Shown piece after piece: positions 2,775 to 49,641 of a stretch of DNA of 64,000 bases. The stretch is from Rhizobiaceae bacterium. Its GTDB lineage: Bacteria; Pseudomonadota; Alphaproteobacteria; Rhizobiales; Rhizobiaceae. Below the pieces are notes generated by a model. It was not told the DNA's origin, ran no database searches, and was given only the letters and a program-made list of their open reading frames with translations. The stretch lies in NCBI GenBank assembly GCA_965198665.1, contig CBDAPT010000008.1, positions 378,809 to 442,808 of the forward strand, written 5' to 3'. How positions within the stretch are numbered: the stretch's first letter is position 1; each line of letters starts with the position of its first letter. The translations under genes and the position numbers were made by a program.

Positions 2775-2801
2775 GAGGAGCGGAATAATAATCCGCTCCT
2801 C
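2775..2801 (+). terminator. Intercistronic hairpin/terminator after dctP, now separated from its T-tract by IS110 copy A
   Basis: 10-bp stem GAGGAGCGGA / TCCGCTCCTC with a 7-nt loop. The matching TTTT(T)G run is found only on the far side of the IS, at 4095-4100. Confidence 0.5.
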
Positions 2802-4096: not shown

Positions 4097-4147
4097 TTTG
4101 CCTTGTCCTGCAAGTGCTACAAACACGTACTGCTGCATACAAGGTGA

Positions 4148-6057: not shown

Positions 6058-6891
6058 CCAGCAATCGGGAGGAGAAAATGACACAAGCCAACGAAAATGC
6101 CGCCCTCCATTTTGTTGATCGGCATGCCTCTGGCCCGCTTGGCGACAAGGCGGTATTTATCGAGGCAGATGGTGCCCAGCGCACCATGACCTATGCCGAG
6201 CTTGCCCATGAAAGTGGGAAGATGGCCGAATTTTACGAGGCAAACGGTATTCACCGGGAAGACCGGGCGGCAGTTCTTGTGCTGGACCAGATTGAATTCC
6301 CGGTGATATTCTGGGGCAGCCTCAAGGCAGGGGTTGTGCCAGTCGCCATAAACACGCTTTTGGCCAGCGATGTGTATGACGCAATCCTTCGCGACAGTCG
6401 GGCACGCATACTGTTCGTATCCCAGGCTCTGCTTGCGATTGTCGAACCGGTGCTGAAAGACAATCCCTATCTCGCAAAAGTGTTTGTGATCGGAGATGAT
6501 GCAGGTGCACATGAAACGTTCACAGGCGCTTTGGACAAATACCAGTCACGCGAAGCACTACATGTCACGGGCGAGGAATCGGCATTCTGGTTGTACTCCT
6601 CCGGATCCACCGGGCAACCCAAAGGTGTACGCCACGTTCATTCCAGTCTGAAATACACTGCCGACACTTATGGTGCACAGGTACTCGGCATAGAAGAGGC
6701 AGACACCGTGTATTCAGCGGCAACGTTCTTTTTCGCCTACGGCCTCGGCAACGCCATGACGTTCCCTATGTCTGTGGGTGCAACCACTATCATTCTGGCC
6801 GGACGACCGACACCGGACTCGGTTACCGAAACGCTCAATACGTACAAACCATCTGTCTTTTGTGGCGTCCCGACGCTTTATGCCGCCCTTA

Positions 6892-7958
6892 GAGCGTGTT
6901 CGCATCACGTGAATTCACAGCCGACTGCCCTGAAGAAATTCCGGCACTCCATTGGCGTGAACATATGGCAGACCTCTCCGATTGCCTTCCAGACATCATC
7001 GAAGGTTCTGGCGCCTGCCTTCCTCAGATGAGCCTTGAGCTTCGAAAAGGCCATTTCAATGGCATTGAGATCTGGGGAATATTTCGGCAGGAACAAAAAC
7101 CATGCGCCGATATCTCGCAAGATCTGCTCGGCTTTTTCGCTCTTGTGAGCGGCTAGGTGGTCAAGGATTACGACATCTCTCTTTTCCAGTTCTGGCGCCA
7201 ACTGTGTCTCAACATAAATCTCAAAGATTTCTTTGGTCATGGCCCGGTCAATAACCCAGGGCGCAACCAGTCCATGACTGCGCAGGCCTGCGATAAGTGT
7301 CTGCTTCTTCCAGTGGCCATGAGGGACAAAATCTATGAGGCGCTCTCCTGTTGGGGCCCATCCAGTTTGCTTGGCCATTTTGGTGTTTGTGGACGTCTCA
7401 TCAATGAAGACAAGTTTTTCAATCGACCGATTCAAAAACGGAACACGCCTTGTCTTCCAGAGTTCGCGGTCTTTTTTCACGTCGATGCGGTGTTGCTCCT
7501 TGGCATAAATAGTCTTTTTTTATGCGACAACCCGAAACTGCGCACAACATGCCAGACAGGCGAATGATGGACATTGAGGTTGAATTTTTCGTTCAGCTCC
7601 GCACAAAGCTTACGGATTGTAATGTCCTTTTGTTCATCAACCCGTTTTCGAAGCCAGTCTTTATAGGGTGAAAGCTTGCCATGGCCTGTTTTTCCCGGGT
7701 TATGTTTTGGAGCAAGCGAGCCAGTTTCACGTTTCAACTTCACCATATCATTCACAAATTTGACGGAGACTTTGAAATGGGCAGCCGTTCCACGATGAGT
7801 GTGGCCTTCTTCTACATGAGCTACAACACGTTTACGCAATTCAATCGGATGGGGCTTGGGCATTGAAAATCCTTGGCTTCGAACCGAATCAGGTCACCCC
7901 AATCAGAATCATATTCGCGCACGGAAAGAAACTGAATCTACTCGACACAAACACGCTC
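6892..7958 (-). mobile_element. IS630-family insertion sequence, copy 1 (1067 bp)
   Basis: Terminal IR GAGCGTGTT...AACACGCTC. TA present on both sides (6890-6891 and 7959-7960). Appears identical to copy 2 (same length, identical ORF translations). Confidence 0.9.
6905..7863 (-). CDS. IS630-family transposase, two overlapping frames joined by a predicted -1 frameshift
   Basis: orfA (7477-7863) is the HTH part and orfB (6905-7480) the DDE part. The A AAA AAA G motif (T-run 7515-7521 on the + strand) gives a continuous ...GLSHKKKTIYAKEQHRIDVKKDRELWK... after a -1 slip. Confidence 0.8.
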
Positions 7959-8529
7959 TAATGCGCATCTTGAAGGAGGAAAGGCGAAACTGGAAGTCAA
8001 CCTTCGACGGTGTATTTCTGCCGGCGAGGCCCTGCCCGCTGAAGTCGGCAAGGATGTAAGTAACAACGAAGTCGGAGAACTGCTCGTGAATGGCGATTCT
8101 GCAGCGGCGGATTATTGGAACCAGCGTGAAAAGAGCCGTGCAACCTTTGAAGGCGTATGGACACGCACCGGAGACAAATATGAACGTCGCGAGGACGGTC
8201 GTCACATCTATTGCGGAAGAACCGATGACATGTTCAAGGTTTCGGGGATTTGGGTTTCACCGTTTGAAGTCGAGCAATCGATTTCGTCCCATCCCGACGT
8301 ACTTGAATCCGCCGTTGTCCCGGCAAGGGATGATGAAGATCTGGAAAAACCCAAGGCATTTGTCATCCTCAAAGAAGGGGTAAGTTCCAACGGCATGGAC
8401 CAGATCCTGAAAGAACAGGTCCAACAACAAATAGGCAAATGGAAATATCCACGCTGGGTCGAATTTGTGTCCGAATTGCCCAAAACTGCAACCGGTAAAA
8501 TTCAACGTTTCAAGCTGCGGGACTGAACC

Positions 8530-16752: not shown

Positions 16753-16826
16753 AATTGACCTCAGAATTCGGCCATTAGTTGTTTTCATCCCGCGAGATTC
16801 GTGGTTTCATCCATGACAATAAGAAC

Positions 16827-17868
16827 AAGGAGATGGCATGAATGGGGTGTGAGCGGTCATGCATCCCGACTCGGATAGAGTGCTGGGAGAGGCGGATAGG
16901 CTGCAGGCTGGATGTCATCTTAGGGCATTGCGACCCTGTAAAGGAGATTACCCGCCGCCTGTATCTGAACGACCAGCGTGAGGCCCGGTTCGGTCCGGTG
17001 ACCTCGTATAGGAGTTTGGCGTGGCCGTTCACACCCTTGTCAGGGTTCCGCCGCTCACCAACGGGAGAAGTTTAGCCATGTCCTTTATCGGTGTCGATCT
17101 TCACACGACGTCTTTCACGGTCTGCCGGCTTGAAGCTGACGGCAGCGAGATATTTGAAACCTACCAGCTGGCAGCGGCCGATCTGGAACGGTTCTGCCTG
17201 AGCCTTGATGCGGACGACGAGATTGCCGTGGAGGCGACGGGCAATTCGGCCTGGTTTCGTGACGAGGTGGTCGCTTGCGTCGGCCGTGTTGTCGTGGTCA
17301 ACCCGAGGCAGTTCGGCGTGATCCGCAAGTCGGTGAAGAAGACGGACAGGAACGATGCCCGGGCACTGGCCTTCTTCCTGTCGAAGGACATGCTGCCCGA
17401 GACGCGTGTGAAGACGGTTGCCGAGAGCGAGTTGGCGTCACTCACCCACACGCGCGATCTTCTGGTCAAGCAGCGCACCCGGCTCATCAACAAGATCCAT
17501 GCGCTGCACACGCGCCACGGCGTCAAGCTGAAGAAGGAAAGCCTGGGCTCGAAGCGGCGGCTCAATGCTCTGGAGGTCGGCCGGTTCTCGACACTGGAAC
17601 AGGTCGAGTTGAAGGCCCTGCGCGACCAGGCGCTGAGGCTTATGGCGACGATTGGCGAACTGGACGGTGCGATCGAAGAGGCCGCCCGGGAACTGGATGG
17701 CTACGACGGCCTCGTCTCAATCAAGGGCATCGGTCCGCGCTCGGCGGCCGTGCTCCTGTCGGGGATCGGCAACGTCGATGACTTCGAGGACGCCGACAAG
17801 CTGGCTGCCTATGTGGGCATCGTCCCGCGCGTCAGCCAGTCGAACGAAACCGACAACCGGGGGCGGAT
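16827..17868 (+). mobile_element. IS110-group element, copy B, 3'-truncated by IS21
   Basis: Appears identical to copies A and C from AAGGAGATGG... up to ...CAACCGGGGGCGGAT, where the IS21 terminal TGTCAATG... begins. Confidence 0.85.
17078..17868 (+). pseudogene. Truncated IS110 transposase (first ~263 codons)
   Basis: Same translation as copies A and C up to ...ETDNRGRI. After that the ORF reads into IS21 sequence. Confidence 0.85.
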
Positions 17869-17988: not shown

Positions 17989-18723
17989 TCAGGATTGAGT
18001 TTTTTGTTTTTTGCTTTGAGCAAACCGGTATGATGCATTCCCGGTTTCTATAATGGTGCAATGATGGGTAATTCGGTCCAGCAGTGCGGTTGTCATCTTT
18101 GCATCTGCGAAGACCTGCGTCCATTCCCCGAACTCCAGGTTGGTTGTAATGATGACGCTTGTCTTCTCGTACAGTTTGCTGATCAGATGGAACAGTAGCG
18201 CTCCGCCGGACTTTGGGAACGGAATATAGCCGAGTTCATCAATAATGACGCAATCCAGTGCGCATAATTGCCGTACGATCCTTGCGGTATTTCCCTCTGC
18301 CTGTTCACTGATCAGCGCATTGATCAGGTCGACAGCATTGAAGAACCGAATTCTCTTGCCGTGATTAACAAGCGTTGTTCCAAGAGCAATGGCAATGTGG
18401 GATTTTCCAGTTCCCGTTCCACCAACCAGAATCAGATTATGTGCATCGGCAATAAACTGTCCGGAACACAAGGGTTCAATCTGTGTTCGGGTTACAGCCG
18501 CCGCATCATAATCGAAGGTGGCAAAGTCCTTGTGATGAGGGAAGTTTGCACTGCGCATTTGATACCGGACCGAACGCACCCTTCGTTCCACGGTCTCTGC
18601 CTCTATCAACTGCTTTATCGCCGTGGCCAGGTTTGGCGGCTGACGTGCACTTAGCAAGTCCTGTGCGCAAGAGGCCATTCCATGCAATCTCAACCCTGCC
18701 AGCTGTTCAATGAGGCCGTTCAT
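17989..18723 (-). CDS. istB: IS21 helper ATPase IstB
   Basis: 244 aa with Walker [12 protein letters not shown] and Walker B VIIDELGY. Overlaps the istA stop. Confidence 0.9.
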
Positions 18724-20219
18724 GCCGTCACCTCATACAGAGCTTCATAACGCTTGCAGTCGGCTTGCGGGACAGTTGAGATCAGAGGATAATTGCCGGT
18801 TTCGCTCAATGGCGTAATTTCCGGTTCTTGCAATTGATTAATCAGATTGATGATGGCAGGAAGACGCAAGGTATTTTGCTTTACAGCCAGCTTACAGGCC
18901 TGCTCGATCACCTCTGTTCCATGCTTGTGTGCCAGCAGCAGAAGATCGACAAAATACCGGTCCCCTCCCTTGTCCTGCATGTAGTGATCCCGGATCGTCA
19001 TCATAACATTTGGCAATTGCCAATCCACGAAAGGGGCGCCATTTCTTAAGGCACCGGGTTTGCGATCCAGCAATGGCACATAGTGCCAGGGCTCAAAGTA
19101 ACTGATATTGCGGGTAAAACGACGTTTGTGCCCGGCAATTACTTCATGATCCGCAACAAGAACTATTCGCCCGGCATAGGCTCGCAGCGAGACTTGTTGC
19201 CCGGCAAACTGACAAGGCACGCTGTAACGATTGTTATCATACTGAACCAGACAGGTGGAACGCACCCGCACACTCTTTTCGATGTACCCGTCAAAGGGTT
19301 GGCCGAGAGGGCGAAGCGCGGCAACCTCTTCTGCAAAAACCGCATCAATTGTGCGATCCTGCATCCCGGGATGCGCACGTTCGCCAAGTTCTTGACAACG
19401 CCGCTCCAGATGTTCATTCAAGCTATCAAGGTCATCAAAGGAAAGCTTGGGCGTAAACACCTCTGCTCGTATGAACCCGACCTGGTTCTCAACCTGGCCC
19501 TTCTCCCAGCCAGATGCCGGCGTACAGGCGACCGGCTCCATAACGTAATGGTTCATACAGGCAAGGAAACGTGCATGGAACATTCGTTCCTTCGAACGCG
19601 ATACATAGGTGACCATAGTCTTGGGATTGTCGATGATGACACGGCGGGGAACTCCCCCGTAAAAGGCCAACGCACGCACAAAAGCATCAAGTACCATCTC
19701 CTGCACTTCGCTGGGATAGGCGTATACAAACGGCTTGCGGCTGTGGCAAAGCCGGAAGTGGGCAATCTTCACTTTCTGGGGTACTCCGCCCAGAACAACG
19801 TGTTCCTCACTCCAGTCAAACTGAACCGCATCACCTGCCGCAAACTGCAGGGGAACAAATGCTCCTCTGGACCCCGAACTCGAATGCTTCAACTCGCGGA
19901 TAAGTCGCTGGGTCGTTGAATAAGACCCTTTATAGCCTTCCCCAACCAGTTCCTCGTAAAGCTTCTTGCCTGTGCGACGCTCCCGGCGCGGCAGCTTCAG
20001 ATCATGCTCCCAGCGTGACCGAAGCTTGTCTGCATGCTTCCCAAGCAATTTATGCAAGGGTGCAGGAGTGTGGCGCTGATAACGAGGCTCCCCATCATCC
20101 TTCAAATACTTCCTGATCGTATTGCGCGAAACTCCCGTCTCACGACTTACCTGTCGAATGCTCTTTTCACCGCGCAATATCCAGCAACGGACCTTCAAAA
20201 CCGTTTCCATTTGTAACAC
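18720..20219 (-). CDS. istA: IS21 transposase IstA
   Basis: 499 aa with an N-terminal HTH ([20 protein letters not shown]) and a DDE region (QFDWSE...IIDNPKT...GWEKGQVEN). Confidence 0.9.
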
Positions 20220-22497: not shown

Positions 22498-22884
22498 GCA
22501 TGAAAACCCGCAGGAGTATCTAGGATGGCAGATAAACTGGTGATCAAAAACATTGGCCTGATTCTTTCTGGCAGGATCGAGGAGCCGATTCTCGATGGCA
22601 ACTGCCTGATCGCCATTGACGGCAAAATCCATTCCTGGGGCAATGAAAAAGATTTGGACACGGCGGATGCGAAAACCGTCATTGATGCACAGGGCGTGAC
22701 ACTCGCACCGGGGCTCATAGACAGTCACATTCATCCGGTTGTTGGAGACTACACTCCAAGGCAGCAGCAATTACACTGGATCGATTCTACCCTGCATGGC
22801 GGCGTGACTACGCTGATTTCGGCTGGCGAAGTCCACATGCCGGGGCGTCCAAAAGATGTGGTTGGCCTAAAAGCGATGGCAATA

Positions 22885-23951
22885 GAGCGTGTTCGCATCA
22901 CGTGAATTCACAGCCGACTGCCCTGAAGAAATTCCGGCACTCCATTGGCGTGAACATATGGCAGACCTCTCCGATTGCCTTCCAGACATCATCGAAGGTT
23001 CTGGCGCCTGCCTTCCTCAGATGAGCCTTGAGCTTCGAAAAGGCCATTTCAATGGCATTGAGATCTGGGGAATATTTCGGCAGGAACAAAAACCATGCGC
23101 CGATATCTCGCAAGATCTGCTCGGCTTTTTCGCTCTTGTGAGCGGCTAGGTGGTCAAGGATTACGACATCTCTCTTTTCCAGTTCTGGCGCCAACTGTGT
23201 CTCAACATAAATCTCAAAGATTTCTTTGGTCATGGCCCGGTCAATAACCCAGGGCGCAACCAGTCCATGACTGCGCAGGCCTGCGATAAGTGTCTGCTTC
23301 TTCCAGTGGCCATGAGGGACAAAATCTATGAGGCGCTCTCCTGTTGGGGCCCATCCAGTTTGCTTGGCCATTTTGGTGTTTGTGGACGTCTCATCAATGA
23401 AGACAAGTTTTTCAATCGACCGATTCAAAAACGGAACACGCCTTGTCTTCCAGAGTTCGCGGTCTTTTTTCACGTCGATGCGGTGTTGCTCCTTGGCATA
23501 AATAGTCTTTTTTTATGCGACAACCCGAAACTGCGCACAACATGCCAGACAGGCGAATGATGGACATTGAGGTTGAATTTTTCGTTCAGCTCCGCACAAA
23601 GCTTACGGATTGTAATGTCCTTTTGTTCATCAACCCGTTTTCGAAGCCAGTCTTTATAGGGTGAAAGCTTGCCATGGCCTGTTTTTCCCGGGTTATGTTT
23701 TGGAGCAAGCGAGCCAGTTTCACGTTTCAACTTCACCATATCATTCACAAATTTGACGGAGACTTTGAAATGGGCAGCCGTTCCACGATGAGTGTGGCCT
23801 TCTTCTACATGAGCTACAACACGTTTACGCAATTCAATCGGATGGGGCTTGGGCATTGAAAATCCTTGGCTTCGAACCGAATCAGGTCACCCCAATCAGA
23901 ATCATATTCGCGCACGGAAAGAAACTGAATCTACTCGACACAAACACGCTC
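22885..23951 (-). mobile_element. IS630-family insertion sequence, copy 2 (1067 bp)
   Basis: Same IRs as copy 1. TA at 22883-22884 and 23952-23953. Confidence 0.9.
22898..23856 (-). CDS. IS630-family transposase (-1 frameshift at T-run 23508-23514)
   Basis: ORF translations are identical to copy 1. Confidence 0.8.
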
Positions 23952-24789
23952 TAGCCGCCCAGCGCTGGTACGAAAACTTCAGACCCTCCGGGATGAAAGT
24001 TCACGCCGGCGCACCGGTGATTGAGCACGGCATGGTGGAAGAGGATTTCAAGGAACTCGCGGAATCAGGGGTAAAGTTTCTGGGCGAGGTTGGCCTCGGC
24101 ACCGTAAAAGACGGAAAGACTGCAAGCCAGATGGTTGGTTGGGCCAGGAAATACGGCATTCAGAGTACCATCCACACGGGCGGACCTTCTATCCCCGGTT
24201 CCGGATTGATTGACGCTGATATGGTACTGGAAACAGGAACGGATGTGGTTGGCCATATCAATGGCGGTCATTCCGCGTTACCCGATGACCAGATCATCTG
24301 CCTGTGTGAAAACTGCAAGGCTGCGCTGGAAATAGTTCATAACGGAAACGAGCGTGCGGCACTCCTGACGCTGAACACGGCCCGCGAGCTGGACAAACTG
24401 GATCAGCTTATTTTAGGGACAGACGGACCGGCGGGATCCGGTGTGCAACCGCTGGGTATCATACGGATGATTGCCATGCTTTCCAGCCTCGGCAATGTAG
24501 CCGCCGAAACCGCACTGTGCTTTGGCACCGGCAACACTTCGAGGCGCAGGAACCTTGATACGGGCATGATAGAAAACGGCTATTGTGCTGACTTTGTATT
24601 GATGGACCAGGCACAGCATGCACCGGGAAAAGACATCCTGGAATCCATTCAGCTGGGTAATCTTCCCGGCGTTGGTATGACCGTCATAGATGGTGTCGTG
24701 CGCAGCGAGCGAAGCCGCAATACACCCCCGGCGACCAGACTGCCCTGCGTGGTTTAAGTTAAAACACATATGCCACAGGGACATATGTG

Positions 24790-29067: not shown

Positions 29068-31809
29068 TTATTGAATCCCGTTACCGTCTTTCAGTGCCGC
29101 CAGTACCTTGTCCGGGGTGGCTGGCAAATCCGTAATCAAAACCCCTGTCGCATCCCGTATCGCATTGATAATGGCTGGCGCTGTCGGAATGAGCACATGC
29201 TCCCCCAACCCCTTGGCTCCGTATGGGCCCTCCGCATCTTCCACCTCGATGATCAGGTTGTGGAATTCGGGAACATCACCAAAAGTCGGGATCAGATAGT
29301 CGTGCAGGTTCTCGGTTTTGCCGGGTGCATAATTTTCCATCAACGCCATGCCAATGCCCTGTGCAACACCGCCTTCGATTTGGCCTTCCACCAACAGGGG
29401 GTTTATTGCTTTACCCACGTCATGGGCTGTAACGATGCGGTCAAGTTTCACCGTACCAAGTCCCGTATCAACCGTGAGTTCCATCATTTGTGCGCCATAT
29501 CCATACATGGCGTAGGGAATGCCCTGCCCTTTTTCATCCAGGGGCTTGGTTGGCGGATCATAGGTTTCTTCCGACATGAAGACATAACCAAGTTCATTTT
29601 CCGGCAATCTGGTCAGATCAATCGATGTGGTTGTTTTGCCCTCGCCCGCTGTTATCATTCCGGCTTCAAAAATCAGTTCGGCGTCATGACTGACATTTGC
29701 TTTTCGCAAAATCTGTCTGCGCAATGCTTCACCTGAAAGCTTCGCGGCCTTGCCGGTAATATAGGTCTGACGGGACGCCGAGGTTTTGCCGCAGTCGGGG
29801 GTGAGATCAGTATCACCATCAATTATCTCTATGCAGTGAACCGGCACACCCAGGCCGTCAGCGGCTATTTGAGCAATGACTGTGTTGGCTCCCTGCCCTA
29901 TGTCCATTGCACCCTGATGCAACACTACGGTGCCATCCTGTCTGATCCCCATACGTACGGTGGACGGGTTCGGCAGCGAGGTGTTGCCGCAACCGTACCA
30001 GCAACTGCCAAGCCCTACACCCTTCCTCATCCCTGATCCGTTTGCTCGCCGGTTATGGCTGGCGGCTTCCTCGCGCGCTTCGTCCCAAAACGGTTTGAGG
30101 GCGTTCAGGCACTCTTCTATGCCTACGCCTTTTTCAAAGACCTGCCCCGTTACCGTCGGCAGTCCGTTCTTCAGGACGTTTCTCAAGCGAAAATCGAGAC
30201 GATCGATGTCTGCCCTGTCAGCGAGCAGGTCAAACGCTACCTCCTGAGCGATTGCCGATTGCGGCACGCCAAATCCGCGAAATGCGCCTGATGGCGGTGT
30301 GTTGGTATGAACCGCAACACTTCTGGCCCGGTAATTCTCGACAAAGTATGGACCCGACGCGTGAACCGGCACGCGGTTTGCGACCGTTGGGCCCCAGCTG
30401 GCATACGCTCCGGTGTTGAACACCCCTTCAAAGTCGAAGCCGGTAATTTTTCCGTCTTCAGTACAGCCAATTTTCAAGGCTATCTCTGAAGGGTGCCGCT
30501 TGGTTGTCGACTGCATGGATTCTGATCGATCATAGGTGATAAACGCCGGTTTCCCGAGTTTCCATGCGGCGAGCGCGACATAGGGCTGAAACGACAGATC
30601 CAGTTTTGATCCGAACCCGCCGCCACATGCAGATGGCATTACCCGGATATCATCGAGTTGCAGGCCCATGATCTCGGCAAGGCATTCGCGATCCATCTGT
30701 GCAGCCTGCGTGCATCCAAACAACTCGAGCCGGTCCCCGTTGCGGATGCAGTGCCCGGCTTCAAGTTCGATGTACCCATGTTCGACAAACGGCGTGGAGG
30801 TTCTGACTTCCACCTGGTGACTGGATGACGCCAGGCCGTCGCCAACGCAACCCTTTTCGACAAAACCCTCAACGAGAATATTTTCTCTGCGATCATGATG
30901 CAGATCGATCAGGTTTCCACCCATTGCATCTCTGGGAAGCAGGGCATGATCGGTTGGCTGCCAATCAATCGGCAGGCTTTCCACTTTCAAAGCTTTCACG
31001 GTTTCATACGCGCCAACCACTGCCGCTACAGCTTCTCCCCGGTAGATAGCGACTTCCTCCGCAAATACCGGTTGATCCGCAAACGGAGGAATAACGCCAA
31101 AGCAGTTTTTGCCCGGGATATCTGTTGCATCAAGAAACGCTTCAACACCACGCGTTTCTGAAACGAACCTGTCCTTGTCACCAATCGTGAATTTGGCATG
31201 GTGATGCGGACTGCGGACTACCCGGACATAAAGCGCATCTTTCGGGACAATGTCAGCGCCATACATCAAGGTGCCGTCGACTTTTGGCCTGCCATCCAGA
31301 TGTCGCACCGATGTCCCGACCCCACATCCTGCCTGCGGAGTTACCTCGGCAGCAACGAAATTGTTTGCATGCATCACCGCTTCGACAATTTTGCGATAGC
31401 CTGTGCATCGGCACAAAACACCACCCAGGGCATCCTCCACCTCGTGTTTTGAAGGCTCCGGGTTGTGATCGAGCAATGCCTTTGCGGACATTAACATACC
31501 CGGCGTGCATATTCCGCACTGGGCTGCCCCGTAATGCAGAAAGCTCTGTTGCAGTTTTGTCAGGGTACCGTCATCGGAAAGGCTTTCCAGTGTCTCCATT
31601 CTGGATCCGTCGATCTGTCCGGTACTGGTGGGGCAACTGCAGGCGATATCGCCGTCAATGAGAACGCTGCAGGAACCGCAATCACCGGCATTGCAGCCAA
31701 CCTTGGTTGCAGTGAGGTTCATGTCATCACGAAGAAAATCCGACAGCCGTTTTACCGGGTCAATCGTGGCATGATGTTCATCGCCATTCAGGTGAAAATT
31801 GATTTTCAT
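29068..31809 (-). CDS. Molybdopterin hydroxylase (xanthine/nicotinate dehydrogenase family) with an N-terminal fused [2Fe-2S] subunit
   Basis: 913 aa. The N-terminus has GCNAGDCGSCSV and GAAQCGICTPG...CRCTGY (two 2Fe-2S sites), followed by aldehyde-oxidase/xanthine-dehydrogenase MoCo domains (GGGFG, ...GLGE...). Confidence 0.85.
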   Translation of the reverse strand: MKINFHLNGDEHHATIDPVKRLSDFLRDDMNLTATKVGCNAGDCGSCSVLIDGDIACSCPTSTGQIDGSRMETLESLSDDGTLTKLQQSFLHYGAAQCGICTPGMLMSAKALLDHNPEPSKHEVEDALGGVLCRCTGYRKIVEAVMHANNFVAAEVTPQAGCGVGTSVRHLDGRPKVDGTLMYGADIVPKDALYVRVVRSPHHHAKFTIGDKDRFVSETRGVEAFLDATDIPGKNCFGVIPPFADQPVFAEEVAIYRGEAVAAVVGAYETVKALKVESLPIDWQPTDHALLPRDAMGGNLIDLHHDRRENILVEGFVEKGCVGDGLASSSHQVEVRTSTPFVEHGYIELEAGHCIRNGDRLELFGCTQAAQMDRECLAEIMGLQLDDIRVMPSACGGGFGSKLDLSFQPYVALAAWKLGKPAFITYDRSESMQSTTKRHPSEIALKIGCTEDGKITGFDFEGVFNTGAYASWGPTVANRVPVHASGPYFVENYRARSVAVHTNTPPSGAFRGFGVPQSAIAQEVAFDLLADRADIDRLDFRLRNVLKNGLPTVTGQVFEKGVGIEECLNALKPFWDEAREEAASHNRRANGSGMRKGVGLGSCWYGCGNTSLPNPSTVRMGIRQDGTVVLHQGAMDIGQGANTVIAQIAADGLGVPVHCIEIIDGDTDLTPDCGKTSASRQTYITGKAAKLSGEALRRQILRKANVSHDAELIFEAGMITAGEGKTTTSIDLTRLPENELGYVFMSEETYDPPTKPLDEKGQGIPYAMYGYGAQMMELTVDTGLGTVKLDRIVTAHDVGKAINPLLVEGQIEGGVAQGIGMALMENYAPGKTENLHDYLIPTFGDVPEFHNLIIEVEDAEGPYGAKGLGEHVLIPTAPAIINAIRDATGVLITDLPATPDKVLAALKDGNGIQ

Positions 31810-31811
31810 TG

Positions 31812-32654
31812 CTATGGGTTCCCCGCCAATGAGCCCAGCACCCGGATTGCAAGCTCCTTGCTCGCCAGCGTTCGGTAGGCCCCGGTGGAACGTATGTCAT
31901 CAATGGGTGACAGCGAGGCAAAATGTTCATCGGCCACATCCGTCACGAGATCACGCGACAGCGCTTTGCCGACCAGCATAGCCTCCAGAGCCGGCAATCG
32001 TGTTGCGACGGCGGAGCACGAACCGACACTGATTTTTGCATCCTCGATGATGCCGTTTTCTCCGACAGCCAGACGGGCAGCCAACATTGAAATCGAAATC
32101 ACCAGATATTTTCGTGCGCCGAGTTTCAGAAACGCAGACCTGCCCAGGGATTGTTCAGCGGGAATCATAAGGCCGACAACCATTTCATTCGGCTTCAGAT
32201 TTGTCTGGCGATTGCCCAGGATAAACTCTTCAAGCGGGAGTTCACGTTCTCCATCGACAGAGGCAATCTTGACGATTGCGCCGAGTGTGAGCAGAGGCGG
32301 AACGCCATCAGCGGCCGGAGATGCATTGCAGATGTTACCGACAACGGTCGCCCGATTTTGGATCTGTACTGAACCGACTTCTTTTGCCGACAGCTTCAGG
32401 CCTTCAAAAGCTGGCGGAAAATCATGTGCGATTACTTCTGACCAGGTGACAAGCGCCCCAATATGCCAGTTGCCCTGGGTGTCCTTCTCGATATTGCGCA
32501 GGGAAGATATTCCGGAAATATCCAGCACATTGAAATCGACTTCTTTCTCCCCGAGAGATGGATAAAAATCCGTGCCACCAGCAAGAATTTTCCAATCTTG
32601 CGAGTTCAACAAGGTAACCGCGCGGTGCAATTTTTCGGGTTTGCTAAACTGCAT
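31812..32654 (-). CDS. FAD-binding subunit of the Mo-hydroxylase (CoxM/XdhB-like)
   Basis: MQFSKPEKLHRAVTLL...ILAGGTDFYP... is FAD_binding_5-type. GAGGTGG RBS lies 6 nt before ATG 32654. 2-nt gap to the next gene. Confidence 0.8.
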   Translation of the reverse strand: MQFSKPEKLHRAVTLLNSQDWKILAGGTDFYPSLGEKEVDFNVLDISGISSLRNIEKDTQGNWHIGALVTWSEVIAHDFPPAFEGLKLSAKEVGSVQIQNRATVVGNICNASPAADGVPPLLTLGAIVKIASVDGERELPLEEFILGNRQTNLKPNEMVVGLMIPAEQSLGRSAFLKLGARKYLVISISMLAARLAVGENGIIEDAKISVGSCSAVATRLPALEAMLVGKALSRDLVTDVADEHFASLSPIDDIRSTGAYRTLASKELAIRVLGSLAGNP

Positions 32655-32834
32655 TGCACGCCACCTCAAGCCACGCGGAACTGAAATGCCATATCGAAAT
32701 TTTCAAGCTCCTCAACCATCTAATCTGGAACCTGTTCCTTAACCTCCTGTCACCAGCAGGTTATTGTTAGCATACAAATAAAAATTTTGTTTGTAAACAT
32801 CGTTAGGGGAGCTCATTTCAAGACGCATGGAGCA

Positions 32835-33476
32835 TCACACCTGGGCCTGTTGCCTGCCGGCCTGTACGGCGGATACCCACCTGCCGGGGGACACTCCAAA
32901 AGCGCGGGCAAAGTGACGGGTCATGTGGCTCTGGTCGGCAAACCCGGTAGCAGCGGCGGTTTCACTTAGCGGGGTACCGGATGACATCATTTCACGGGCA
33001 ATTTCCAGGCGCCGCATGATCAGAAAACGGTGCGGGCTTGTTCCGAACGCATCCCGAAACCTGCGGGACAGGGAATATCGGTCGAGCCCGGAAACTTTCT
33101 CCAGGTCGTCGAGTGTTACATTCTGCCGACAATTGTCCACCAGAAAATCCCGTGCCCTCAGGAGTTGTCGCTTCGGCAATGCTCTGCGTCGCCGGGCCGT
33201 CTGCCTGGCGTGCCTCTCCAGCGCAGCCGTGATTTCAGCAATGCTGCCTGCCGCCTGAACCGCTTCGAGACCCGGTTCGAATGGCTGTGTTGCAGCGAGC
33301 AACGCAGCGTGTAGTGTCGCATTCGCAGAATTCACACCGAAGGAAGCAGCGATTGTCGGGCTCGCCCTGCATGCGGACACCAAGGTTGTCGACAAAATTA
33401 CCAAGGGTGCAAAACTGCATCCATGAAGATGACACATCAGGCTGCATATTCTGATTAGAAAAGGGCGTGAAACCAC
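32835..33476 (-). CDS. AraC-family transcriptional regulator (C-terminal HTH domain clear; N-terminal domain possibly frameshifted)
   Basis: The C-terminus ...LDDLEKVSGLDRYSLSRRFRDAFGTSPHRFLIMRRLEIAREMM...ETAAATGFADQSHMTRHFARAFGVSPGRW is a canonical AraC dual HTH. A second ORF (33235-33684) in another frame overlaps its 5' part. Confidence 0.6.
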   Translation of the reverse strand: MVSRPFLIRICSLMCHLHGCSFAPLVILSTTLVSACRASPTIAASFGVNSANATLHAALLAATQPFEPGLEAVQAAGSIAEITAALERHARQTARRRRALPKRQLLRARDFLVDNCRQNVTLDDLEKVSGLDRYSLSRRFRDAFGTSPHRFLIMRRLEIAREMMSSGTPLSETAAATGFADQSHMTRHFARAFGVSPGRWVSAVQAGRQQAQV

Positions 33477-36683: not shown

Positions 36684-38036
36684 ATGTGGACGCCCCGGAT
36701 TGGCAAGACATTTTTTGATGTTTTGATCGGTTGCTTTCATATGTCCGGCCTGTTGATGCGATATTTGATAGATCGCTGGCCCTGATGGAAATCCGCAAAC
36801 GAGGTTCCTGATCAAGATGACGCGCTCATGGGGCGCATTGAATCACACGGTGTAACCTCGTTTTTGGCTGATCATGTCACATCACTTTCTGCCATTACCA
36901 ATTTCTGTGCCTTGCCTTCAAGCGGCGCTGATTCGCAAGGGGTTATAGCGCTGTCCTCTGGTCATAAGAACCCAGGCGATGCGAGCGGTCTTGTTGGCCA
37001 ATGCGACAGAGACCAGTCTCACAGGTTTCTTTTCCAGCAGACCATTGATCCAGACCGCGGTCGGGCTCTTCTTGTTTCGATTGTGGCGAATAACAGCTGT
37101 CGCACCAATGACAAGCAGGCGGCGAATATACCGGTCTCCCTGCTTTGATATGCCAGCGAGCCTTACTTTGTCACCGCTTGAATGCTGTTTGGGGACCAGG
37201 CCAAGCCATGCGGCGAACTGCCGTCCGCTTTTGAATTGTCCCGGATCGCTGACGGTTGCCATCAGTGCAGTGGCTGTGATCACACCAATACCCGGAATGG
37301 CTGCCAGGCGCCTGCTGGCTTCATTTTGCCGGTGCCAGTCACGCAGGACCTTCTCAAGAGCCTGCAATTCTTCCTCCAGTTCGAGCAAGCGACGGGCAAG
37401 CGTTGCCAGCGCGACTTGTGCAATAGCCGGCAGGACATGCTTCTCGTCGTTTTCGTTGAAGATGGAATGAGCCAGCTTGACGATGTTCCTGACGCCGGGG
37501 GTGGTGACAAGACCGAACTCTGCACAATGAGCACGCAGTGCATTGGCTGCCATGGTGCGTTGCCGCACAATCAGGGAACGGGTTCGGTGTATCATCAGGA
37601 TACTTTGCTGCTCAGGTGTTTTGACAGGCACGAAACGCATGGTGGGCCGCCTGACAGCCTCGCAAATCGCTTCAGCATCGGCAGCGTCATTCTTGCCCCG
37701 CTTTACGTAGGCCTTGACGTAGGCAGGAGGCATCAGTCTGACCTCATGACCAAAGGCTGCCAGGGTGCGAGCCCAATAATGGGCAGTGGCACAAGCCTCC
37801 ATGCCGACAAGGCAAGCTGGCAGTTTCGAGAAAAAGCCTTTCAACTGTTTTCGCCGCAACCTTTTGATCACGATAACACTGCCATCATCGTCAACACCGT
37901 GAACCTGGAAGACACTTTTGGCAAGATCAAGCCCGATCGTGGTAACTTTCATAAGGACGCTCCTTCGTTATTTGTGGTTCATTCATCAACAACCACCTTA
38001 CGACAATTCATTTGCCGGTATGAGGGGGCGTCCACC
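36684..38036 (-). mobile_element. IS110-family element of the IS1111 type (1353 bp)
   Basis: Subterminal IR GTGGACGCCCC (36686-36696) / GGGGCGTCCAC (38025-38035). TCAT on both flanks (36680-36683 and 38037-38040). 234-nt non-coding arm downstream of the transposase and 84 nt upstream. Confidence 0.8.
36918..37952 (-). CDS. IS110-family (IS1111-group) DEDD transposase/recombinase
   Basis: MKVTTIGLDLAKSVFQVHGVD...VGMEACATAHYWAR...GKNDAADAEAI...IPGIGVITATAL.... Confidence 0.9.
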   Translation of the reverse strand: MKVTTIGLDLAKSVFQVHGVDDDGSVIVIKRLRRKQLKGFFSKLPACLVGMEACATAHYWARTLAAFGHEVRLMPPAYVKAYVKRGKNDAADAEAICEAVRRPTMRFVPVKTPEQQSILMIHRTRSLIVRQRTMAANALRAHCAEFGLVTTPGVRNIVKLAHSIFNENDEKHVLPAIAQVALATLARRLLELEEELQALEKVLRDWHRQNEASRRLAAIPGIGVITATALMATVSDPGQFKSGRQFAAWLGLVPKQHSSGDKVRLAGISKQGDRYIRRLLVIGATAVIRHNRNKKSPTAVWINGLLEKKPVRLVSVALANKTARIAWVLMTRGQRYNPLRISAA

Positions 38037-45423: not shown

Positions 45424-46544
45424 TGTGCCGAAGAGAGATTTCACGCTGTGCGCTTCCCAGAGGTTTGAGAGCGGTCATGGCGGTGCCTGCGCATCTCTGA
45501 ACACCTCCTCCGGCGTCCGGAAGCCGAGTGCCTTGCGCGGCCGTGCGTTGAGCAGATCCTCCACCGCCTGGACCTCGGCATCGGTCACAGACCGGAAATC
45601 CGTGCCTTTCGGCAAATACTGGCGGACCAGTCCATTGGTGTGTTCATTCAGCCCGCGCTCCCATGAGTGGTAGGGCCGGGCAAAATAGAACTTGGCATCA
45701 AGCGCCTTGGACAGGCTGCTGTGGCCAGCGAATTCCTTACCGTTGTCCGCAGTGATCGTGTGAACCAGGTGCCGATCTGCCTCCAGCCGGCGTCTGAGCG
45801 CAGCTCCGACATCTTCGGCCGTTTTCCTGTCGAGCCGTACCAGTCGGGTCATCTTCGAGGCGCGGTCCACCGCCGAAACCACTGCGCCGCTTTGACCCGC
45901 TCCAACGATCGTGTCCACCTCCCAGTCACCGATCCGCAACTTCTGTTCGACGATCGCGGGCCGCTCACTGATATCGACACGACCGGGAATGCGTCCTCGC
46001 CCGGCGTGCCGGCCGCCGCGCCAATTCGGTTTCTTCCCACGCCGCCGCAGACGTTTGTAAAGGCTGCCACCGGCCCTGCGGTCCGCGCGGACGTATTCGT
46101 AGATCCGCATCCGCCCCACCATGGCTTGGCCTTCCCGACGAAACCGACCCGAAATTTGCTCTGGGCTCCAGCCAGCCGCCAACTTCTCCTCGACCAATTG
46201 CCACAGGGCGGGTGTCATCTTCCTTGGCACCGATGACGCCCTGTGGCGGCGCTCTGTCGCCTTGTTATGGGCCTGTTTGTACCGGTAGCCCCGGCCGCCG
46301 CTGTTGCGCTGCATCTCTCGACGGATTGTCGTGTGATGGCGTCCGAGCTCACGCCCAATGTCTCTCTGCGAGAGGCCGCTTTTCTTCAACCCCCAAATCT
46401 GGCAACGTTCATCTTGGGTCAGGTGGTGGTAGCCGCGAGGCATAGGCGAATCTCCTTCTACAAGATTCTCGCCATCGCCTGGCCCGCCCGCAAGGAAGAA
46501 TGCTCATCACGCTGCCGTTTTCACTGGTGCACTTCGGAATGGCA
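45424..46544 (-). mobile_element. IS30-family insertion sequence (boundaries approximate)
   Basis: Contains a complete IS30 transposase. Only a weak candidate IR (GTGCC..CGAAG) was found at the proposed ends, so the limits are tentative. Confidence 0.35.
45475..46443 (-). CDS. IS30-family transposase
   Basis: MPRGYHHLTQDERCQIWGLKKSGLSQRDIGRELGRHHTTIRREMQRN... with the DDE region ...GDWEVDTIVG...ITADNGKEF...PYHSWERGLNEHTNGL. Confidence 0.9.
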   Translation of the reverse strand: MPRGYHHLTQDERCQIWGLKKSGLSQRDIGRELGRHHTTIRREMQRNSGGRGYRYKQAHNKATERRHRASSVPRKMTPALWQLVEEKLAAGWSPEQISGRFRREGQAMVGRMRIYEYVRADRRAGGSLYKRLRRRGKKPNWRGGRHAGRGRIPGRVDISERPAIVEQKLRIGDWEVDTIVGAGQSGAVVSAVDRASKMTRLVRLDRKTAEDVGAALRRRLEADRHLVHTITADNGKEFAGHSSLSKALDAKFYFARPYHSWERGLNEHTNGLVRQYLPKGTDFRSVTDAEVQAVEDLLNARPRKALGFRTPEEVFRDAQAPP

Positions 46545-46704: not shown

Positions 46705-48042
46705 TCAGATCTGGAGATAGCTCTCCAGAGAATCATCCAGCGCATCTTTCCATGGTGTGTGATGCGGTGGTGCCTGCGTGCCGGTCATCGGCGACACATA
46801 TCCGTGGTTGCGGAATTCCATGATGCCTTTCTTCTTGTGTTTCTTCCACTGGAAGAAAGCCTCGTTTGCAGCATCAATGTCGAAGCTGGGATAATCCGTC
46901 TCGTTGATAAGTTCCTGAGTGTATGCGCCCTGATAACGAATGCAGTCGTAATCGTCTTCCAGCGCGTCTTCGGCATCCACACGGGCGTTGACGTCAGCCA
47001 CCATGGCCGCCTTGTCCGGCATGGAAATCTTGCCCATGATCGCATCGCGTGTCCACCAGGCCTGGGCATCGAACATGTTAAACGTGTACCACTGATCCTG
47101 CATCCCGAGATAGAAGAGGTCCGCGTCATGCACATAGGCCACGCCCTTGTAGAGGTCAGCGGAGGCAAGACGGTTTGCGGTCCGCAGGCGCAGATTGTCC
47201 GCCATGAACGGGAAGCGATGCAGATAGCCGGTACACAATATTATCGCGTCAACGTCCTTGGTAGTACCGTCCTTGAAGTGTGCCGTCTTGCCTTCAACTT
47301 TTATCAGGGCCGGAACTTCCTGCCAGTTGTCGGGCCAGTCATAGCCCATTGGAGCGGTGCGGTGGGCAACGGTCACCGATTTGCAACCGTATTTCCAGCA
47401 CTGGGAGCCGATGTCCTCGGCGGAGTAGGATGTGCCCAGGATAAGGATGTCCTTGTCATTCATCTCCATCGCATCACGGAAATCGTGGGCGTGCAGCACC
47501 CTGCCCTTGAAGGTTTCGAAACCGGGATAATGCGGCACATTGGGGGTTGAGAAGTGACCGGAAGCCACAACTACATGATCGAAGACTTCATCGCTTTCGG
47601 TATCGTTGACGCTGTCATTGGCAATGACGCGAAACTTTCCGTCCGCATTCTTTTCGACGCGGCGTACCACGTGATTGAACTTGATCCAGTCACGTACGCC
47701 TGCTTTCTTCACCCGTCCCTCGATATAATCGAACAGGACCGCGCGCGGCGGATATGAGGCAATCGGTTTGCCGAAATGCTCTTCAAAGGTGTAATCGGCA
47801 AATTCAAGCCCCTCTTTCGGACCGTTGGACCACAGATAGCGATACATGGAACCGTGAACAGCCTCACCATGCTCATCAAGGCCGGTGCGCCAGGTGTATT
47901 TCCAAAGGCCGCCCCAGTCGTCCTGTTTTTCGTAGCAGACGATTTCAGGAATTTCCTCGCCGTTCTGCTTTGCTGACTGGAATGCCCGCAATTGGGCGAG
48001 CCCAGAAGGCCCCGCACCGATAACCGCTATCCGTTTCGTCAT
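46705..48042 (-). CDS. tmm: Flavin-containing monooxygenase, bacterial trimethylamine monooxygenase type
   Basis: [15 protein letters not shown] (FAD), FxGxxxHxxxY-like [26 protein letters not shown] (NADPH), C-terminal ...PPHHTPW.... GGGAGGGA RBS before ATG 48042. Confidence 0.8.
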
Positions 48043-48082
48043 GATTTCCCTCCCAGAAAGTGTTGATGCCGTCACAAATTCG

Positions 48083-48216
48083 AAATTGGTATACCATACC
48101 TGAACCAATTTTAGGATATTCGAACCAATAGTCAATAAAATCCTTGATTTTCCAGCCCAATATGTACCAATTTGTGGGTAATTGGTATAGCGAAGTCGAG
48201 ATTTGGTATTTTTGGT
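48083..48216. promoter_or_regulatory. Array of ATTGGT/ACCAAT operator-like repeats in the tmm / SBP divergent region
   Basis: TGGTATACCA (48087-48096); ACCAAT (48104-48109 and 48124-48129); TACCAATT-n7-AATTGGTA (48165-48187); TTGGT twice (48203-48216). Confidence 0.6.
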
Positions 48217-48263
48217 CCCTTGGAACAAGGACTTACCCTCGGCAGGCGCAGCAGGAGACTATT

Positions 48264-49574
48264 GTGAGTGCAGCAAGTTTTGCATTACGCATGTCCGTGG
48301 TGGGGGCAACGTCGCGTTTCGGGGTCAGTGCGGAACAGACCATCAAAATAGGATTTCTCGCACCGCTCACCGGTGAGGTGAGTTCCTGGGGCCAGCCGGG
48401 TCTCAACGGCTCGCACATCTGGGCGGACCGGGTGAATAGCGAAGGCGGCATCCTGCTCAATGGTCAGCGCCATAAAATAGAGATTGTTGCCTATGATTGC
48501 GGCTATGATGCGGATCGGGCACTGGCAGGCGCTAAAAAACTGATCCAGGAGGAAGACGTAAAATTCCTGATGATGCTGGGCGGGGACACCTTCACCCCGA
48601 TCCTGGATTATGTGCGCCAGCGCAAGATCCTCACCTCCACTCTTTTGCCCAGCGATCTTTCGCCGGACACACCCTATCTGATCGCCCCAAGCGAAATTCA
48701 TCCAATCTACAACGTTACAGGTGTTGAGTGGCTCGCGCAGAACAAGCCGCTTCTCAAAACCGTTGCCCTGTGCAGCCAGAAAGATGCACTGGGGCTGCCG
48801 TCACTGGCCACCTATCGCGCGGCTTTTGAAGCAACAGACATCGAAATCGTCGAGGAGGTGATTTACAACCCGGAAAATCCGGACGCCGATGGTATCGTCG
48901 AAACGCTGATGGCCTCACAGCCGGACATTATGTGCTGGTGTACTGCCTATGAGCCGGTCGTTCATGCACTCACCCAGGCTGCCTATCAAAGAGGTTATGA
49001 AGGACAGCTTCTGTCCTGTACAATTGACGACTACAAGTCGCTGATTGAAGCGACCAGCACGGAATTCATGGAAGGGTTCGTGTTCCAGTTTCCGGATTTT
49101 GATGATCAGAAGCTCAACTCAAAATCCGTCAATTTCAATCGGCCCAACGCGTTTTATGCGGAATATGACCAGCGGTTCCCAGGTTCCTGGACTGCCGTTT
49201 CCTGGGAATATGTATCCGGCCTCGATCTGTGGCGTTCGGCAATCGAAAAAGCCGGCACTGTTGAACCGGTCTCCGTTCTTGCCGCCATGAAGCACGGCGG
49301 TCAGGCAGTCCATGCCTTTGGCAATGCCGAGTGGTGGGGTGATGAACTGTTCGGCATCGATAATGCGCTTGTCGGAGACTGGCCGGTGGTATCTATCAGG
49401 AACGGCAAGGCGCAGATCGAGGAATTCCGTTCCACGATCAGCTGGTGCCGTGATCACGTGGGATTGCTTGAGAAACACATGCGGGCCCTGGGCCAGATGT
49501 GGGATCAGCGACTGGTACCCAAGCCGGTCGAGGAAACAACAATTCCACGCCATTTCTCCCCACACCGTGCATAA
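48264..49574 (+). CDS. LivK/AmiC-type (Peripla_BP_6) ligand-binding protein with no obvious signal peptide
   Basis: IKIGFLAPLTGEVSSWG... is typical of family-1 branched-chain/amide binding proteins. AGGAG lies 6 nt before GTG 48264. The N-terminus is not clearly hydrophobic. Confidence 0.7.
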   Translation: MSAASFALRMSVVGATSRFGVSAEQTIKIGFLAPLTGEVSSWGQPGLNGSHIWADRVNSEGGILLNGQRHKIEIVAYDCGYDADRALAGAKKLIQEEDVKFLMMLGGDTFTPILDYVRQRKILTSTLLPSDLSPDTPYLIAPSEIHPIYNVTGVEWLAQNKPLLKTVALCSQKDALGLPSLATYRAAFEATDIEIVEEVIYNPENPDADGIVETLMASQPDIMCWCTAYEPVVHALTQAAYQRGYEGQLLSCTIDDYKSLIEATSTEFMEGFVFQFPDFDDQKLNSKSVNFNRPNAFYAEYDQRFPGSWTAVSWEYVSGLDLWRSAIEKAGTVEPVSVLAAMKHGGQAVHAFGNAEWWGDELFGIDNALVGDWPVVSIRNGKAQIEEFRSTISWCRDHVGLLEKHMRALGQMWDQRLVPKPVEETTIPRHFSPHRA

Positions 49575-49610
49575 AAACGCTTTCATCATTTCCAGCAGCC
49601 GTCTCTGCCC

Positions 49611-49641
49611 TTGACTTGGAGTAACTCCAGGCCGGTATAAA
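49611..49641 (+). promoter_or_regulatory. MerR-type promoter with a 19-bp spacer containing a palindrome
   Basis: TTGACT (49611-49616), 19 nt, then TATAAA (49636-49641). The spacer starts with TGGAGT-A-ACTCCA (49617-49629). Lies 25 nt upstream of the merR-family ATG. Confidence 0.55.

Follow-up and report, generated by a model that had tools for sequence, protein, structure and literature searches.

What regulator reads the cluster of ATTGGT and ACCAAT words that lies between the trimethylamine monooxygenase gene tmm and a divergently transcribed gene for a LivK-like binding protein? The locus belongs to a 64-kb stretch of DNA from a Rhizobiaceae bacterium (GCA_965198665.1, contig CBDAPT010000008.1), here called the window, in whose numbering positions are given. 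Because Tmm makes trimethylamine N-oxide (TMAO) from trimethylamine and oxidises dimethyl sulphide to dimethyl sulphoxide, its control bears on marine nitrogen and sulphur cycling. A preliminary description of this DNA had proposed that a GntR-family protein of the FadR subfamily, encoded in the same module, binds the cluster and controls both divergent promoters. We find that the element is real, that it was correctly interpreted, and that it is largely an expected kind of regulatory element; judged from sequence, it is very probably the array of operators through which the adjacent GntR repressor of the FadR subfamily, the TmoR counterpart of this organism, acts.

A recurring half-site between tmm and the livK-like gene

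The intergenic region between the two genes measures 221 bp (48043–48263), as previously described, and runs from the tmm start codon (ATG, read as CAT at 48040–48042) to the GTG of the livK-like gene at 48264. It holds seven TTGGT/ACCAA half-sites within 131 bp. None of 1000 dinucleotide-preserving shuffles of the region reached this count of pentamers (shuffle mean 0.74), nor that of the five hexamers (mean 0.27). Likewise, 99 of the 137 other 221-bp segments of the window with a GC fraction of at most 0.46 contain no half-site and none contains more than three, so the motif is more frequent here than in other AT-rich DNA. Over the whole 64 kb ATTGGT is not enriched (37 copies against 38.3 expected), and of the 37 copies five lie between tmm and the livK-like gene and another five between the transporter genes tmoX and amt (57288–57557), which puts ten of them in two intergenic regions. 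The word AATTGGTA occurs eight times in the window against 1.14 expected (a count reached in none of 100 shuffles), with five of the eight copies inside the same two regions.

The preliminary description had put two palindromes to the fore, the 10-bp TGGTATACCA (48087–48096) and the inverted repeat TACCAATT-n7-AATTGGTA (48165–48187), and had added two further ACCAAT (48104–48109 and 48124–48129) and two TTGGT words (48203–48207 and 48212–48216); all of these are where it placed them. On their own, however, the palindromes are weak evidence, since a perfect 10-bp palindrome arose in 224 of the 1000 shuffles and an 8-bp inverted-repeat arm in 51. While the half-site count exceeds that of every shuffle, the palindromes do not stand out in this way, and the signal is thus the recurring half-site. 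We rejected the palindromes as the main signal for these chance rates (22% and 5%) and because the right arm of TGGTATACCA is unconserved (below). The recurring unit is a half-site, roughly (A)ATTGGT(A/T).

As repression requires, half-sites overlap core elements of the predicted tmm promoter. A consensus scan of the intergenic region called a single promoter, on the tmm strand, reading TTGACT-16-TAAAAT with 10 of 12 matches; its predicted −35 hexamer, TTGACT, lies at 48130–48135 and its predicted −10 hexamer, TAAAAT, at 48108–48113, both on the minus strand. Half-site 3 (ACCAAT, 48124–48129, minus strand) occupies the promoter spacer beside the −35 hexamer, half-site 2 (ACCAATT, 48104–48110, minus strand) covers the −10 hexamer and the discriminator, and half-site 1 (AATTGGTAT, 48084–48092, plus strand) falls at about +9 to +17 of the predicted transcript.

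These three half-sites also form a footprint in relatives. In an alignment of the window with the loci L081 (whose GntR protein is 82% identical to that of the window), L082 and L087 (74%), the words AATTGGTAT, ACCAATT and ACCAAT.GTCAA (48124–48135) are invariant, and the DNA between them varies. The left arm of TGGTATACCA is part of half-site 1. Its right arm (ACCA, 48093–48096) is not conserved, as TTTT, TTTG or GTTT stands in its place in the relatives. The 10-bp palindrome is therefore present as described and yet is not the conserved unit: one arm is missing in the three closest readable relatives, and its N2 spacing is rare in the family (3 occurrences against 33 of N4). Half-sites 4 and 5, the arms of TACCAATT-n7-AATTGGTA, are kept in L081 with the same 7-nt spacing around another spacer sequence (tgtgggt versus taatgcc), and conserved arms and spacing with a changed spacer are a classic signature of a protein-binding site. 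Half-sites 6 and 7 form the direct repeat TTGGT-N4-TTGGT (48203–48216, plus strand), the commonest spacing of the family; L081 retains one TTGGT in this part, aligned to neither window copy. Neighbouring half-sites in the region are 16–21 bp apart, or 42 bp across its centre, and the spacing types present include N2 (that of TGGTATACCA), N13 and everted N11. Over this and the tmoX/amt region together, half-sites are phased at 9–11 or 16–21 bp.

On the livK-like side we place a putative extended −10 element, TGGTATAGC, at 48184–48192 on the plus strand, with TGGTATAAT at the same place in L081; the consensus scan made no call for this putative promoter. If the placement is right, the inverted repeat would span its −35 to −10 interval and the two TTGGT words would follow just downstream. 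The earlier suggestion that both divergent promoters are controlled fits this anatomy, in which half-sites overlap the predicted tmm promoter and the putative livK-like one. The livK-like leader is about 64 nt long in the window and in L081 and carries an AGGAG ribosome-binding site. In most of the 61 relatives with the same gene order (below), the livK-like ATG follows a TGnTAnnnT box at a distance of only 6–9 nt, which suggests that the mRNA there has little or no leader. An Rfam scan of 47900–57700 returned no family with E ≤ 1, hence no known RNA element in the leaders.

Gene order and motif grammar among relatives

A search with the GntR protein of the window returned hundreds of homologues in Alphaproteobacteria, from which a scan with one genome per species gave 80 loci (1.45 Mb of locus DNA). 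The order gntR, convergent livK-like gene and divergent tmm was found in 61 of the 80, and also in L081, L082 and L087. The module is thus conserved in at least 61 alphaproteobacterial genomes, including those of Roseovarius, Leisingera, Sedimentitalea, Mesorhizobium and Aminobacter. Roseobacter and rhizobial proteins of the same synteny are 49–64% identical to the window GntR protein; the closest homologue (P0002) is 89% identical, and that of Pseudomonas sp. GX19020 (P0093), a strain scored as tmoR-positive in Table S1 of PMC13390433, is 60% identical.

In the 61 tmm/livK-like intergenic regions TTGGT/ACCAA is the top enriched word, with 213 copies against an expectation of 16.8 when all locus DNA is the background and of 40.7 when low-GC DNA is, and about 40 of the 48 clusters of at least four exact half-sites found over the 1.45 Mb lie in such tmm regions. 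An alignment of 62 sequences shows a common grammar: from the tmm start outward come the ribosome-binding site, TTGGT-N4-ACCAA, about 8 nt, TTGGT-N4-TTGGT (often continued as N4-ACCAA), a further ACCAAT and GTCAA. The GTCAA, conserved among the alignment rows listed, reads TTGAC on the tmm strand, the −35 hexamer, and an ACCAAT adjoining it is common in the 61 relatives. Across the family the direct N4 spacing is the commonest class (51 occurrences versus about 2 expected), alongside inverted N4 (TTGGT-N4-ACCAA; 33 versus about 1), everted N9 (19), inverted N13 (15), inverted N3 (7) and inverted N2 (3). Many relatives show spacings of 9 to 11 bp, and those of the window and L081 run from 16 to 21 bp.

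A second inverted repeat, TTCC-N5-GGAA, lies 10–13 nt beyond GTCAA, just upstream of the tmm −35 hexamer, in 16 of the 62 tmm intergenic regions, and recurs at Leisingera dmmD-like promoters and at the amt promoters of Celeribacter and Thalassovita. It was absent upstream of tdm (0 of 24) and gmaS (0 of 14). We rejected it as a box for the AraC-type regulator TmaR (discussed below), since it too is absent at tdm and gmaS and co-occurs with TTGGT promoters. The equivalent position of the window (48137–48151) reads AAAATC-CTT-GATTTT.

Other arrangements occur as well. In L001, L084, L085, L088 and L089 tmm and gntR are adjacent and co-oriented. In two of these loci, L084 and L089, tmm further diverges from a full set of HAAT-type ABC transporter genes, for a binding protein, two permeases and two ATPases. 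Upstream of tmm, L085, L088 and L089 show arrays of (T)ATACCAATT, with a period of about 21–22 bp in L088.

The module of the window is of the common type. Its tmm (46705–48042, minus strand) matches the NCBIfam equivalog NF058570 at 800.7 bits against a cut-off of 675, and the livK-like gene (48264–49574, plus strand; Pfam PF13458, Peripla_BP_6, 2e-50), which we take as the second regulated gene, diverges from it. The preliminary description had also placed a FadR-subfamily GntR gene at 52040–52786 (minus strand), and this gene, the proposed source of the binding protein, does encode a full-length protein with a GntR winged helix-turn-helix and an FCD domain. PF00392 and PF07729 are recorded in all listed homologues, including the identical P0001; its full-length NCBIfam matches are to NanR, LldR, ExuR, GlcC, FadR and PdhR, all under their cut-offs. 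One binding-protein gene thus separates tmm from the regulator, in an order syntenic with that around tmoR of Ruegeria pomeroyi.

Between the livK-like gene and gntR the window carries an IS110-family insertion sequence (IS) element (50011–51312, 99.9% identical to 2799–4100) and a 5′-truncated EhuB-like binding-protein gene (51320–52030); in L081 the two genes are only 20 bp apart, and the insertion is absent from L082, L087 and the 61 genome loci too. The window is rich in such elements, with IS110 copies at 2799–4100 and 16824–17868, another of IS110 type at 36918–37952, IS30 at 45475–46443, IS21 at 17989–20219 and an IS630-type repeat at 6890–7960 that equals 22883–23953. An origin of the arrays as IS-derived repeats was nevertheless rejected, since they are conserved in IS-free relatives.

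Upstream of gntR, on the same strand, lie the genes of a betaine/TMAO-type ABC transporter, tmoX (56184–57140), tmoV (54853–55884) and tmoW (52919–54856), which together span 52919–57140, give NCBIfam matches of the ProV, ProW and choline types, and stand in the same order in L081 and L087. Divergent from tmoX is an amt-like gene for an ammonium/methylammonium transporter (57610–58992, plus strand; TIGR00836, 1.5e-56). The tmoX/amt intergenic region holds eight half-sites in two groups. The first, AACCAATGCAATCCAAAACCATACCAATTA (57287–57316, minus strand), lies upstream of tmoX and is conserved with L081, where the AACCAATGCAATCCAAA.C.ATACCAATT block is the sole noncoding stretch of this intergenic region that is conserved (82.6% over 69 bp); L087 has a similar ACCAAT pair upstream of tmoX. 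The second comprises six half-sites upstream of the amt-like gene (57502–57563) and includes TTGGTTACAACCAA at 57533–57546, one perfect palindrome of the canonical family type with N4 spacing, and the amt-proximal GGTTACAACCAATnAGGACCAATTTTGG, conserved in L081. This suggests that in this lineage the TMAO transporter operon and the amt-like transporter are under the same repressor as well. The 132-bp gap between tmoXVW and gntR contains no half-site, and since gntR lies downstream of tmoXVW on the same strand, autoregulation could follow by read-through from that operon.

Which protein binds the array

A repressor of the expected kind has been described. In R. pomeroyi DSS-3 tmm is repressed chiefly by the GntR-family protein TmoR (SPO1553; Wang et al., 2026, PMC13390433), first reported by Lidbury et al. 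(2016, as cited in PMC13390433). Its DNA-binding domain binds a tmm promoter fragment (microscale thermophoresis Kd 5.1 µM, and electrophoretic mobility shift assay), its effectors as inferred in vivo in DSS-3 are dimethylamine (DMA) and, less strongly, TMAO, and tmoR stands beside tmm in 12 of 13 strains, usually with one gene of unknown function between them (PMC13390433). The preliminary description was thus right about the type of regulator, and its proposal needs correcting in that this is the already named TmoR system and not an unknown regulator. No operator sequence is defined in PMC13390433, in whose text neither ‘motif’ nor ‘palindrom’ appears, and a full-text literature search for SPO1552/SPO1553 returned no other relevant paper. 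The primers of the published Ptmm probe, ACCAATTTCTACCACTCCGCC and GTCGGTCTCCCTGCTTGGTT (PMC13390433), do carry half-sites, the forward one beginning with ACCAAT and the reverse one ending in TTGGTT. Since the forward primer also fits the site at the livK start in L079-type loci, the probe shifted by TmoR corresponds to the intergenic region studied here.

Synteny and footprints both point to the GntR protein of the module as the likely binder, as had been proposed, and so does the distribution of the motif. A metagenome scan with Tmm yielded four tmm loci with gntR and 36 without it but with sufficient flanking DNA. At least three half-sites lie upstream of tmm in all four of the former and in five of the latter, 29 of which have none or one (Fisher p = 0.0014; Mann–Whitney p = 8e-13 when pooled with the 61 genome loci), although neither test corrects for common descent and a gntR may be missed on short contigs (L105 ends after tmoW). 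The motif also accompanies gntR away from tmm. A gntR paralogue stands beside amt without tmm in L046, L052, L055 and L059, beside amt in L062 and alone in L058, and TTGGT-N4-ACCAA-type sites occur at the gntR promoter, the amt promoter or both in these six loci. Half-site clusters are, by contrast, missing from promoters bound by TmaR: none was found upstream of tdm in 23 of 24 loci, or upstream of gmaS in any of 15. The exceptions are ACCAA-N10-TTGGTATGGAATTGGTATGTGATTGGT upstream of tdm in L081 (18612–18653) and, at another gene, TTGGTCCGCACCAA after a TTGACA box upstream of the Leisingera dmmD-like gene (L029, 4529–4566); the make-up of the regulon seems to vary among lineages. No tdm is present in the window. 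Finally, no variation occurs across the family in the DNA-binding segment of the GntR protein (GVARNT.REAL, RR.G.GSFV), in keeping with the invariant TGGT core of the half-site.

Several observations weigh on the other side. The canonical TTGGT-N4-ACCAA is absent from the tmm/livK-like region, where half-sites lie 16–21 or 42 bp apart, and the partner position 9 bp from each strong half-site matches at only 0–2 of 5 bases by eye, for which reason we rejected a reading of the region as a row of canonical N4 palindromes. Orthology of the window GntR protein to SPO1553 is drawn from synteny and family membership. In DSS-3, moreover, the AraC-type TmaR binds the same Ptmm probe, and TmoR was reported to act on tmm alone among the catabolic genes tested (PMC13390433), whereas the motif stands here also at tmoX and amt, and at tdm in L081. 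Some TGGTAT copies, lastly, could be −10-like promoter elements.

Of the alternatives, the one that survives best, though we hold it improbable, is that the boxes belong to some regulator encoded elsewhere, for instance one of nitrogen status, and stand beside the GntR gene by accident. The genes concerned (tmm, amt and tmoX) do serve nitrogen acquisition, the TTCC-N5-GGAA repeat shows that at least one more factor acts at these promoters, and our view is limited to 64 kb of the genome. Against such a regulator, the motif tracks the presence of gntR across loci and contexts, its sequence is a classic FadR-subfamily half-site, and the invariant GntR DNA-binding region fits the invariant TGGT core. 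The motif bears no likeness to the consensus of NtrC (TGCACC-N5-GGTGCA) or NtcA (GTA-N8-TAC).

We think it very improbable that the boxes are instead sites of an AraC-type methylamine master regulator like TmaR (SPO1584). Dimers of the AraC family can recognise half-sites, direct or inverted, that are spaced by roughly two helical turns. For the Ptmm fragment of R. pomeroyi the TmaR DNA-binding domain has a Kd of 1.4 µM (PMC13390433). The half-sites of the window are about 18–21 bp apart in mixed orientation, and the motif does appear upstream of tdm in L081 and of the dmmD-like gene in Leisingera. However, TmaR has further targets, the tdm, dmm, gmaS-mgs, mgd and tmaR promoters (PMC13390433), and it is because the arrays are missing at those of tdm and gmaS in nearly all loci that we do not prefer it. 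The family-wide unit, furthermore, is a GT..AC palindrome with the half-site of PdhR, typical of GntR proteins, and it occurs at promoters of gntR genes that have no tmm nearby. The sole AraC-type gene of the window (32835–33476, a 213-aa open reading frame) lies 15 kb away beside xanthine-dehydrogenase-like Mo-enzyme genes (29068–32669), a context unrelated to the methylamine module, and is by position no TmaR candidate.

Least credible of all is that the repeats serve as parts of a promoter (an extended −10 in the case of TGGTAT, or UP-like A/T-rich DNA) or arose by chance in AT-rich intergenic DNA, for although TGGTATAGC resembles an extended −10, as does TGGTATAAT in L081, and the two palindromes alone are within reach of chance, the half-site count was reached in no shuffle, other AT-rich segments hold at most three half-sites, and copies in both orientations are fixed in the spacer and downstream of the −10 hexamer, where promoter function needs no conserved sequence.

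A proposed mechanism and its precedents

We therefore return to the TmoR-type GntR protein as repressor. Its recognition unit would be the half-site (A)ATTGGT(A/T). The tmm promoter as predicted has three conserved copies, one by the −35, one on the −10 and one at about +9 to +17, and four further copies cover the putative livK-like promoter and the beginning of the leader. With several dimers of the repressor on this array of about 130 bp, RNA polymerase would be blocked at both divergent promoters, and a methylated amine (DMA, less so TMAO) may release the dimers, by analogy with R. pomeroyi TmoR. At the second array the same repressor would act on the TMAO transporter operon and the amt-like transporter, and possibly on its own gene via read-through. 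In this scheme we infer the binding of these very bases by the GntR protein, the stoichiometry, the inducer and the livK-like, tmoX and amt targets. The number and phasing of the half-sites suggest that binding may be cooperative and involve several dimers, as the preliminary description had supposed, and there is a precedent in E. coli NanR, three dimers of which bind (GGTATA)3 cooperatively, each asymmetrically on one repeat (PMC8012715).

The role of the LivK-like protein deserves separate comment. The preliminary description had likened it to LivK and AmiC, and we rejected the AmiC relationship, as AmiC is not named among the 20 PDB matches listed, the best of which are generic HAAT/Tat-signal binding proteins at about 1e-6. 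In orthologues that adjoin gntR the protein begins with a conserved N-terminal peptide, M..SSFAxRLAV..LPRL, that has no twin arginine; N-terminal hydrophobicity is low in 24 of 24 orthologues, with no hydrophobic core. A clear Tat leader (SRLDRRDFLSASAAA...AFA/ADK) marks the transporter-linked paralogues of L083, L084 and L089. Lacking the leader borne by these paralogues, the gntR-adjacent protein is unlikely to be exported and could act as a sensor in the cytoplasm. One may imagine a three-part switch, in which several TmoR-type dimers polymerise over about 130 bp, spanning both divergent promoters, and the amine signal arrives at least partly through the adjacent LivK-like protein as co-sensor, a logic like that of AmiC/AmiR or NasS/NasT applied to a GntR repressor. 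The livK-like gene always adjoins, and its own putative promoter lies inside the array. Such a switch is compatible with the published work, since in R. pomeroyi the TmoR effectors rest on genetic inference and purification was limited to the DNA-binding domain (PMC13390433). We nonetheless regard it as unlikely.

How does the array compare with known systems? One is that of TmaR, which resembles it in binding the tmm promoter fragment of R. pomeroyi and mildly repressing tmm (PMC13390433). It differs in protein family, in that tdm and gmaS promoters carry no TTGGT arrays in nearly all loci, and in that no such gene lies beside the module of the window.

NanR is a FadR-subfamily GntR repressor with an N-terminal extension and an operator made of an array of short repeats, and its GGTAT is contained in the extended half-site TTGGTAT. 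In the GntR protein of the window, likewise, a conserved N-terminal stretch of about 24 residues precedes the winged helix-turn-helix, and NanR is the best NCBIfam match of this protein (8.1e-21, below the cut-off) and second-best PDB match, though a distant one in sequence. The repeat period of NanR is 8–9 bp, unlike the 9 to 21 bp and mixed orientation of the repeats in the window.

With PdhR of E. coli, whose box, AATTGGTnnnACCAATT (PMC7660256), is of the form that the preliminary description had given, the array has an identical half-site, AATTGGT, as well as the FadR subfamily and sites that overlap promoters, divergent ones included. The effector (pyruvate) and regulon of PdhR differ, and so does the spacer, which is N3 in PdhR, while the TmoR family prefers N4 (33 occurrences) over N3 (7). 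Neither intergenic region of the window contains an N3 unit of the PdhR/LldR type, AATTGGT-N3-ACCAATT; the array is thus not a PdhR box, as the half-site is common to both and the spacing is not.

The closest system is TmoR itself. The window departs from it in having half-site spacings outside the 9-bp register of the family, extra arrays at tmoX and amt, and an IS110 element and gene fragment between the livK-like gene and gntR. In both, a single gene, for an uncharacterised binding protein of the HAAT type, separates the GntR regulator gene from tmm (PMC13390433, PMC4744692), and R. pomeroyi TmoR binds the fragment between tmm and the binding-protein gene and represses tmm, as we predict by analogy for the window. 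The repressor was therefore already known, and what is added here is no new principle: it is a testable operator half-site, (A)ATTGGT(A/T), together with a grammar common to the family, in which inverted and direct repeats at 9-bp phasing adjoin the tmm −35 hexamer, and a regulon that is likely to be wider in some lineages, where it would take in the livK-like gene, amt and tmoXVW, in one relative tdm as well, and in Leisingera a dmmD-like gene. With the half-site defined, the TmoR regulon can be predicted in genomes and metagenomes, and mutants for footprinting can be designed.

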